A DNA stretch of 9,541 bases from IMG/VR virus record IMGVR_UViG_2548876863_000015; one strand, 5' to 3'. A model generated the notes under the pieces. The model made no database searches. It saw only the letters and a list, made by a program, of their open reading frames with translations, and was not told where the DNA came from. Positions within the stretch are counted from its first letter, which is position 1; every line of letters starts with the position of its first letter. The DNA comes from a virus (Duplodnaviria > Heunggongvirae > Uroviricota > Caudoviricetes). The translations under genes were made by a program, and so were the position numbers. Shown piece by piece: positions 7,035 to 7,568 of this stretch.

Positions 7035-7057
7035 AAAAGTTACACGAAAAGTTACAC
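7035..7057. repeat. Tandem AAAAGTTACAC x2 in the terS 5' leader
   Basis: AAAAGTTACAC at 7035-7045 and 7047-7057 (12-bp period); same GTTAC core as the repeats inside terS. Confidence 0.5.
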
Positions 7058-7079
7058 CCCCTCAAAACGAGGTTTTTGC

Positions 7080-7568
7080 ATGGCATTAACGACCAAAAAA
7101 AAGCGGTTTGCTGATGCGTTATCAAGGGGCGCAAATCCCACGGAAGCCGCTATACATGCGGGATACAGCGAAAAGACCGCAAGGGTTAAAGGCTGGCAGC
7201 TATCCAACGATCCTGAGGTGAAAAAGTATCTTAAGGCTGTAACTTCTGATGTAACTTTTCAGGTTACAAAACCGAAAAAAGTTACAAAGAAAGTTACCGA
7301 AAAAGTTACACCGGAACGGGCATCAATTAACACCATTGAGATGATGGATAACGGCCTACCCGACCCCATCAAAGCAATGGGCAGGATACTGATTGACAAC
7401 ATGGACACAGATCCAAAACTGGCTTTAGATGCCGCGTTTAAGCTGGCCCAGTTCACCCACCGCAAGATCGGCAGCATTGGGAAAAAAGAGGTTAAAAAAC
7501 TCAATGCCGCTAGTGTCTACTCAAATCGGTTCCCCATCCCTAAGCCACCAACAGACTTAAAACACTGA
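7080..7568 (+). CDS. terS: Terminase small subunit-like protein (TerS / Rpp-like packaging specificity factor)
   Basis: 162 aa from the ATG at 7080 (GAGG SD 7 nt upstream). N-terminus KKRFADALSRGANPTEAAIHAGYSEKTARVKGWQLSNDPEVKKYL matches the small-terminase HTH pattern (A--L--G-N-T-AA--AGYS-KTA). The upstream GTG at 6939 overlaps the previous gene and is rejected. Confidence 0.7.
   Translation: MALTTKKKRFADALSRGANPTEAAIHAGYSEKTARVKGWQLSNDPEVKKYLKAVTSDVTFQVTKPKKVTKKVTEKVTPERASINTIEMMDNGLPDPIKAMGRILIDNMDTDPKLALDAAFKLAQFTHRKIGSIGKKEVKKLNAASVYSNRFPIPKPPTDLKH
7238..7308. repeat. Six GTAAC/GTTAC pentamers at ~12-bp phasing inside terS
   Basis: GTAAC at 7238-7242 and 7250-7254; GTTAC at 7262-7266, 7279-7283, 7292-7296, 7304-7308. 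At protein level this encodes reiterated KVT/VT (..VTSDVTFQVTKPKKVTKKVTEKVT..). Confidence 0.5.

Follow-up and report, generated by a model that had tools for sequence, protein, structure and literature searches.

Terminase recognition sites that lie at or inside the gene for the small terminase (terS), and phage satellites that carry a private recognition segment, are already known. In phage lambda, cosB consists of the elements R3-R2-R1 read by gpNu1, and the cos1 site of the phage-inducible chromosomal island (PICI) EcCICFT073 has its own cosB, read by a complex of Rpp and TerS (PMC6739421). In both systems, repeated cosB elements beside cosN set the packaging specificity, EcCICFT073 combining a helper-like cosN with a private cosB (PMC6739421). 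In phage SPP1, the sites pacL and pacR, bound by the small terminase (TerS, gp1), overlap with the promoter, the ribosome-binding site and the 5' part of the gene for this protein, which also acts as a repressor of its own synthesis (PMC6316719). How small terminases with a helix-turn-helix (HTH) domain recognize DNA is contested (PMC9611059). Here, we studied a repeat array in and just upstream of terS in a stretch of 9,541 nucleotides (the window; IMG/VR record IMGVR_UViG_2548876863_000015), which is 100% identical to a ~9.3-kb island that lies between yljB/cspD and clpS in E. coli O157:H7 FRIK2455. The sequence comparisons below suggest that the repeats are probably a recognition array for the island's own TerS, working like a two-part cosB or an SPP1-type pac site. 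The features concerned are as follows.

6953–7033, plus strand: conserved cos-like block, a putative cosN equivalent, made of a run of nine G, then GGACACCGCCCCCCGTCTCA, then AGAAAATTTT
7035–7057, plus strand: proximal cluster of the non-coding leader, two direct copies of AAAAGTTACAC with a 12-nt spacing (−44 and −32 relative to the ATG)
7080–7568, plus strand: terS, encoding a small terminase of 162 amino acids with an HTH DNA-binding domain (residues 1–56), a disordered linker (57–84) and a helical core (about 85–130)
7238–7258, minus strand: two inverted copies (minus-strand GAAGTTACA and AAAGTTACA), which in the terS frame are GTA ACT TCT and GTA ACT TTT (V-T-S and V-T-F)
7260–7310, plus strand: four direct copies, CAGGTTACA, AAAGTTACA, AAAGTTACC and AAAGTTACA, spaced 18, 12 and 12 nt, encoding the (K)VT repeats of the linker

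An earlier note on this DNA had described eight copies of GTTAC/GTAAC with about 12-bp spacing, two in the leader and six within terS, and the positions bear this out: the sites are at 7039(+), 7051(+), 7239(−), 7251(−), 7263(+), 7281(+), 7293(+) and 7305(+), with successive spacings of 12, 188, 12, 12, 18, 12 and 12 nt, and the six in the gene span +158 to +222. These eight are among 22 copies in the 9.5-kb window. The cluster density is far above chance, as the densest 280-nt cluster in simulated sequences mostly held two or three copies and never more than six (1000 first-order Markov runs). The repeat unit is also longer than the pentamer. The exact 8-mer AAAGTTAC is found six times, all inside 7036–7309 and none elsewhere in the window (0.32 expected), and the 9-mer AAAGTTACA, with at most one mismatch, gives seven matches, every one in the terS region; Tandem Repeats Finder reports 12-nt arrays at 7035–7057 and 7275–7310. 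The in-gene copies are translated in frame as AVTSDVTFQVTKPKKVTKKVTEKVT, which confirms the KVT peptide repeat that had been proposed. On the other hand, the GTAACTT at 8926–8932, put forward as a related copy, reads TAAGTTACC, has two mismatches to the 9-mer and belongs to another repeat, GCGGTAACTGGTTGA, whose family occupies the 3' non-coding region at 8820, 8923 and 8982.

The product of terS, which begins at ATG 7080 and is identical to RefSeq WP_001229493.1, matches Terminase_2 in Pfam (PF03592, 1.4e-10) and PHROG 641 over its full length (1.5e-43), and its DNA-binding domain is homologous to those of SF6 TerS (3zqp, 2cmp) and Pam5 TerS. The protein, with its N-terminal HTH domain, belongs to the SPP1/SF6 Terminase_2 family. 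In the AlphaFold model, the predicted local distance difference test score is 80–89 for residues 1–50, below 50 for residues 57–84 and 75–82 for residues 90–120, and the in-gene array thus encodes the part of TerS that is predicted to be a disordered linker. We rejected a longer open reading frame (ORF) starting at GTG 6939 (209 amino acids) as the terS start because all homologs and the RefSeq protein begin at the equivalent of ATG 7080.

The cos-like block occurs once in the window and is 78–83% identical to the HNH–terS intergenic region of Shiga toxin (Stx)-type lambdoid prophages of O157, in which the genes are ordered HNH, terS, terL, protease-capsid fusion and portal. It also precedes terS in relatives from Hafnia, Salmonella, Bordetella and Burkholderia, and in the phage relatives an HNH gene adjoins it. 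The record of the linear Burkholderia phage PhiBt-E264.1 has its termini inside the homologous block, at the position equivalent to 6994|6995 of the window, and this suggests that 6953–7033 is a cos cleavage region. In all relatives whose sequence includes the block, the first word lies at a fixed distance, ~40 nt past it. The repeats are therefore placed as in a cosB, beside the putative cleavage block, on the side packaged first and before or at the start of terS.

This arrangement resembles lambda cosB and EcCICFT073 in that repeated words, here putatively bound by TerS, directly precede the small-terminase gene and lie past the nicking site, on the side that is packaged, and it resembles EcCICFT073 further in that the island keeps a helper-like cleavage block with a different recognition segment. 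Unlike gpNu1 of lambda, the island TerS is of the Terminase_2/SF6 type, and its words are 9–11 bp long with a 12-bp phase; unlike in both lambda and EcCICFT073, half or more of the array is inside terS. The proposed reader also differs from that of EcCICFT073, being the satellite's own full-length TerS and not an Rpp adaptor remodelling the phage TerS. With the SPP1 pac site, the array shares the TerS family, the two-part layout of putative binding regions upstream of terS and inside its 5' part, which covers ~270–320 bp of the leader, the ribosome-binding site and 5' terS, and the possibility of autoregulation. However, SPP1 cuts at pacC between its binding regions and packages by headful, whereas here the sole conserved cleavage-like block is upstream of both word clusters, which argues against an SPP1 layout. 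The phage relatives here, unlike SPP1, carry the HNH gene typical of cos packagers, and the distal cluster is in linker-coding DNA, not in the part coding for the DNA-binding domain, and has clear phased repeats. HK97 (PMC11331095) likewise has an HNH-associated module, and its TerS site, with an A-tract, also follows the cut by a few tens of bp. The HK97 site is, however, single and 15 bp long, and a TerS that lacks an HTH reads it on the DNA moving through its ring channel, as opposed to up to eight words and an HTH-type TerS here.

Two further precedents had been named for a site embedded in terS, P22 and the Staphylococcus aureus pathogenicity islands (SaPIs). A site at the small terminase's own gene remains the best reading, but both are weaker precedents than lambda cosB and SPP1 pacL/pacR because the TerS is of the SPP1/SF6 Terminase_2 type and the sites follow a cos-like block that has an HNH gene in phage relatives. 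A P22-type pac consists of one asymmetric ~22-bp site inside the gene, read by a P22-type TerS, and the locus here has an array of 9–11-bp repeats, partly outside the gene, and a TerS of another family. As in SaPIs and Gram-negative PICIs (PMC6092414, PMC10085698), a satellite TerS homolog would be expected to redirect helper packaging, and gene set and size match; those elements, in contrast, are of pac type or have undefined sites. In the literature searched, we found no defined repeat array for Gram-negative PICIs, nor one embedded in terS.

To separate a DNA word from a peptide, we compared the locus with its relatives. A protein search gave 13 TerS relatives, and the DNA, located by look-up of exact proteins, was compared for eight lineages with 55–65% protein identity: E. 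coli L003 and L014, Hafnia L005, Salmonella L007 and L008, and the metagenomic L011, L012 and L013. Among these, L005 is a complete prophage of Hafnia alvei that encodes TerL, capsid, portal and tail proteins, and L012 is a TerS–TerL–capsid contig. The exact 9-mer AAAGTTACA is present in the non-coding leader of all eight, 34–44 nt before the ATG. Most relatives also have two inverted copies at about +155 and +167 followed by at least two direct copies, with 12-nt spacing, at about +186 and +198. The leader's AAAAGTTACAC and the linker's AAAAAGTTAC are the two longest invariant runs in the nucleotide alignment of the eight, and GTA ACT T[CT]T is kept at the aligned inverted position in six. 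The 12-nt phase is found in non-coding DNA as well, in the window (7036/7048) and in L003 (6808/6820 and 6752/6764), and is thus not only a codon effect.

One could argue that it is a linker peptide rich in (K)VT that is under selection and that the likeness of the DNA is secondary. VT dipeptides are indeed conserved across the clade members, and since GTT-AC and GTA-AC both encode Val-Thr, some of the "inverted" copies could be codon variants. The codons tell otherwise. The linker Val codon is GTT in 8 of 8 and 7 of 7 sequences and the Thr codon is nearly always ACA, while the codon alignment shows free third-position drift in the other conserved codons for Val, Thr, Ala, Gly and Pro; mean third-base conservation is 0.89 in the six V/T columns of the linker versus 0.53 in 27 other conserved four-fold columns (Mann–Whitney P = 3.5e-4). 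Moreover, the inverted copies match the motif past the pentamer, through the Ser/Phe codon (TCT/TTT), an extension that points to likeness at the DNA level and not at the peptide level; the S and F codons differ by one transition, at the motif position that is conserved least. The same 11-mer also recurs in non-coding leaders. The peptide, for its part, seems to matter little: the linker is predicted to be disordered, natural TerS variants (P0004 and P0003) are shorter by exactly 4 or 8 residues, equal to one or two 12-nt units, and the Stx-type homolog, 46% identical to the island TerS overall (59% in the DNA-binding domain, 7% in the linker, 70% in the core and 42% in the tail), works with a wholly different linker, which suggests that the linker peptide itself is dispensable. 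We consider selection on the peptide highly improbable as the source of the repeats. Judged from the alignments, they are a DNA-level signal and not a mere low-complexity linker, the KVT peptide being best seen as a by-product of the DNA word. The earlier note had named, as an outcome that would undo its proposal, a low-complexity linker whose homologs lack nucleotide conservation, and the leader 9-mer and the frozen synonymous positions of the linker speak against precisely that. Its view of the repeats as island-specific does not stand, since the same word is found in the Hafnia alvei prophage, in the TerS–TerL–capsid contig and in E. coli and Salmonella satellites. The island's word differs only from that of the co-resident O157 Stx-type prophages, and the motif belongs to a TerS clade and not to the island alone.

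The numbers of words vary within this clade, with eight in the island and eight or more in L003 in comparison with four or five in the phage relatives. L003, an E. coli satellite, has, within 6650–6860, a leader insert of ~150 nt with five extra copies of the AAAGTTACA type, one pair of them nearly palindromic (AAAAGTTACACGATGTAACTTTT), and also one ATGTTAACA, which is the word type of the Stx prophages; it also carries an HNH gene of its own. In the Salmonella locus L007 (1532–6785), a GTTAC-type terS precedes, in this order, a 288-amino-acid ORF, a gap of ~1.7 kb without a called gene, and a full protease-capsid fusion with portal and head–tail genes; no terL was called, and the locus may be a degraded phage or a phage–satellite mosaic. 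A profile scan of genome contigs with the TerS alignment gave no confirmed relatives, and a search for related loci in IMG/VR returned the two E. coli clades and no further ones. The deposited phages of the phage collection contain no GTTAC-type TerS, and the phage members described here are prophages or metagenomic contigs.

In other TerS clades, the word is different but its positions are the same. The Stx-type prophages have no GTTAC words; they carry five copies of ATGTTAAC in the leader (−196 to −82), including one perfect palindrome, and an inverted GTAAACA/TGTTTAC pair at +154 and +191, and both the leader words and the inverted pair are kept between diverged alleles. In Bordetella phage PHB09 (TerS identity 31%), copies of the TTGTTAAC type abut the ATG and GTTAACAAA lies at +168, the sole two GTTAAC hexamers in a GC-rich locus of 2.8 kb, and the Burkholderia phage has TTTGTTAA at the terS ATG. 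Across these lineages, the word follows the clade of the DNA-binding domain of TerS, at positions that remain constant, related domains going with related words (GTTAC and GTTAAC), and it is this co-variation that suggests binding of TerS to the array.

The same evidence bears on the idea that the repeats serve something other than TerS: they could be replication iterons or be bound by a host factor, by the HNH protein or by the product of a 53-amino-acid ORF downstream of terS. An unrelated human-gut phage contig (L027, 6600–6830) has about nine copies of AAAGTTACA in both orientations, in an intergenic region that resembles a replication origin and follows an ORF of 803 amino acids. A gene for a TerS-like HTH protein is located 4.3 kb from these repeats, and the sibling contigs L040, L045 and L071 have the same layout. 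In every relative, however, the array accompanies terS and the cos-like block, also in phages without a nearby replication gene, and the word changes when the TerS DNA-binding domain changes. Iterons would be expected as repeats beside an initiator gene that move with the replication module; the array does not behave in this way, and separate candidate iterons follow directly after the primase gene (5963–5981 and 6086–6107). Another binder is thus quite unlikely. A scan of IMG/VR for the tandem word AAAGTTACANNNAAAGTTACA gave 111 loci, of which 10 were this satellite and the rest chance matches or unrelated AT-rich ones, among them an origin-like repeat region of a gut phage, and the tandem word alone is therefore not diagnostic.

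The leader copies lie 10–25 nt upstream of the Shine–Dalgarno sequence of terS (7068–7072), which would fit an operator of leader and in-gene words on which TerS or another regulator represses terS at the level of transcription or translation, with packaging specificity residing elsewhere. The terminase of SPP1, from the same Pfam family, does repress its own synthesis through pac (PMC6316719). Against autoregulation as the only role, a scan of the leader found no sigma-70-like promoter (0 hits), phage terS genes are read from a distant late promoter through cos, and the fixed distance to the cos block together with clade-specific words in the cosB position fits packaging better. We regard an operator with no packaging role as rather unlikely, although the two roles are not exclusive and autoregulation is plausible as a second one.

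The copies could also pair in the mRNA, leader with inverted or inverted with direct, and so control translation or stability. The arms 7035–7059 and 7235–7259 are 84% complementary, arms within the linker 79–81%, and inverted and direct copies form a hairpin in the predicted fold (z = −2.35). The z-score is a modest one, however, and the minimum-free-energy fold has no pairing between leader and gene. In L003 and L014, the inverted copies are lost but the direct ones preserved, the direct 12-nt tandems of the leader are left unexplained, and an Rfam search of the repeat region gave no family match. With only a modest local hairpin, RNA structure was rejected as the main explanation, and we judge that there is very little chance of it accounting for the array.

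Recognition by the island's TerS remains our preferred reading, and several observations weigh against it. The co-variation between clades rests on three or four lineages, and since the motif is invariant within the clade, no compensatory change links the word with individual TerS residues. Since the 9-mer also occurs in the origin-like repeats of the unrelated gut phage, it is not unique to TerS. The degenerate inverted copies of L003 and L014, beside preserved direct ones, mean that not every element of the architecture is obligatory. Finally, the presumed position of cos cleavage is drawn only from the termini of the Burkholderia phage record. The earlier suggestion of a packaging or autoregulatory site can therefore be taken in two parts: conservation among homologs argues for a DNA-level cis-element tied to the small terminase, and its function is what the comparative evidence suggests.

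If the array is read by TerS, several HTH domains of one oligomer would bind neighbouring words in either orientation, and the bound two-part array (proximal 7035–7057 and distal 7238–7310) would mark satellite concatemers. Both clusters would be on the packaged side of the cos-like block, the distal words ~190 bp beyond the leader pair and in the DNA encoding the linker between the DNA-binding domain and the oligomerization core of TerS. The core and tail, which resemble those of the Stx-type TerS, would then recruit the large terminase and HNH protein of the helper for a cut at the shared cos block and the start of packaging. Flexible domains that dock on bent or wrapped DNA would be in keeping with the 12-bp phase, an A-tract preceding each core and the tolerance of either orientation. 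As in SPP1, TerS on the leader copies, beside the ribosome-binding site, may in addition lower its own production, and the KVT repeat would arise from AAA-GTT-ACA being read in frame in a tolerant linker. Since the Stx-type helper TerS would read ATGTTAAC with a different DNA-binding domain, the array would give the satellite a private packaging address. Indirect hints at the helper come from the co-resident Stx-type prophages, to which the cos block is 78–83% and the TerS core 70% identical. It is also possible, if on balance doubtful, that the array serves as a natural multi-site substrate to which a single SF6-type TerS ring attaches through several HTH domains simultaneously, in a nucleosome-like wrap, that selection on the array writes the TerS linker as an overlapping code, and that satellites multiply the words to out-compete phages for terminase. 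The higher word counts of satellites hint, speculatively, at such competition by avidity.

The rest of the island provides the context for this proposal. The 651-bp query of the terS region (6950–7600) was matched over at least 80% of its length in 220 of 5,426 complete E. coli genomes. The other annotated features used here are these.

185–1408: integrase, P4 type
2270–2494: AlpA
4115–5863: primase, D5 type
7580–7741, plus strand: ORF of 53 amino acids between terS and the capsid-like gene, matching the PHROG 641 profile at positions 89–125 (E = 3.5e-7)
7731–8654, plus strand: capsid-like protein of HK97 fold, 307 amino acids

Large terminase, portal, tail and lysis genes are absent from the ORF, Pfam, PHROG and RefSeq annotation of the island. 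By its gene set, size and absent phage genes, the island matches the SatelliteFinder definition of a PICI and the canonical layout of proteobacterial PICIs (PMC10085698), and on annotation we class it as a PICI-type phage satellite. Imperfect direct repeats flank it (94–161 and 9403–9459), with 10-nt TTGTTCG-type tandems followed by two copies of GGTGTAGT(C/T)AAT, and these are likely attL and attR; the window contains no tRNA gene. The capsid-like protein is 24% identical to residues 291–625 of the 645-amino-acid protease-capsid fusion of the Stx-type prophage L002, the part that forms the mature capsid domain, and is a candidate for redirecting capsid size as in other PICIs. The 53-amino-acid ORF has counterparts of 49–51 amino acids at the same place in the satellite-like L008, L011 and L013 and in the terS–terL gap of the phage L012. 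By BLASTP, it has no similarity to the island's TerS, and it may encode a mini-TerS core or an adaptor. Directly 3' of the primase gene, the tandem repeats at 5963–5981 (two copies of CCCCTCTAC) and 6086–6107 (2.4 copies of AGGTAGAAG) are candidate replication-origin iterons of the island. The 3' non-coding region (8660–9400) is dense in repeats, with an 88-nt direct repeat (8695–8782 and 9232–9319, 95% identical), three copies of the palindrome CCCGATATGGGGATCACCATATCGGG and repeat families of 47–72 nt. The repeats of this region have no Rfam match and no ORF that would account for them.

In the literature searched, we found no description of an invariant 9–11-bp word in a two-part, 12-bp-phased array flanking the region that codes for the DNA-binding domain, of a distal array half embedded in, and dictating, the linker of an SF6-type TerS, of such an array conserved across HNH-associated phages and PICIs, or of sister clades in which GTTAAC-type words occupy the same positions. 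With its short invariant word, its phased array and its natural variants in copy number and orientation, the clade provides a tractable natural substrate; with the related GTTAAC-type words of the sister clades, specificity swaps, footprinting and cryo-EM of wrapped complexes would be directly testable. The locus would also be a clear case of a putative DNA-binding-site array constraining protein sequence. For the PICIs of E. coli, known routes to private packaging are Rpp adaptors and capsid-forming PICIs, and our findings suggest a third from cos-type helpers, in which the satellite uses its own TerS and its own cosB beside a helper-like cleavage site. The helpers are likely Stx-converting or Stx-type prophages of O157:H7, and the element may therefore affect both the mobilization of the island and the yield of Stx phages.

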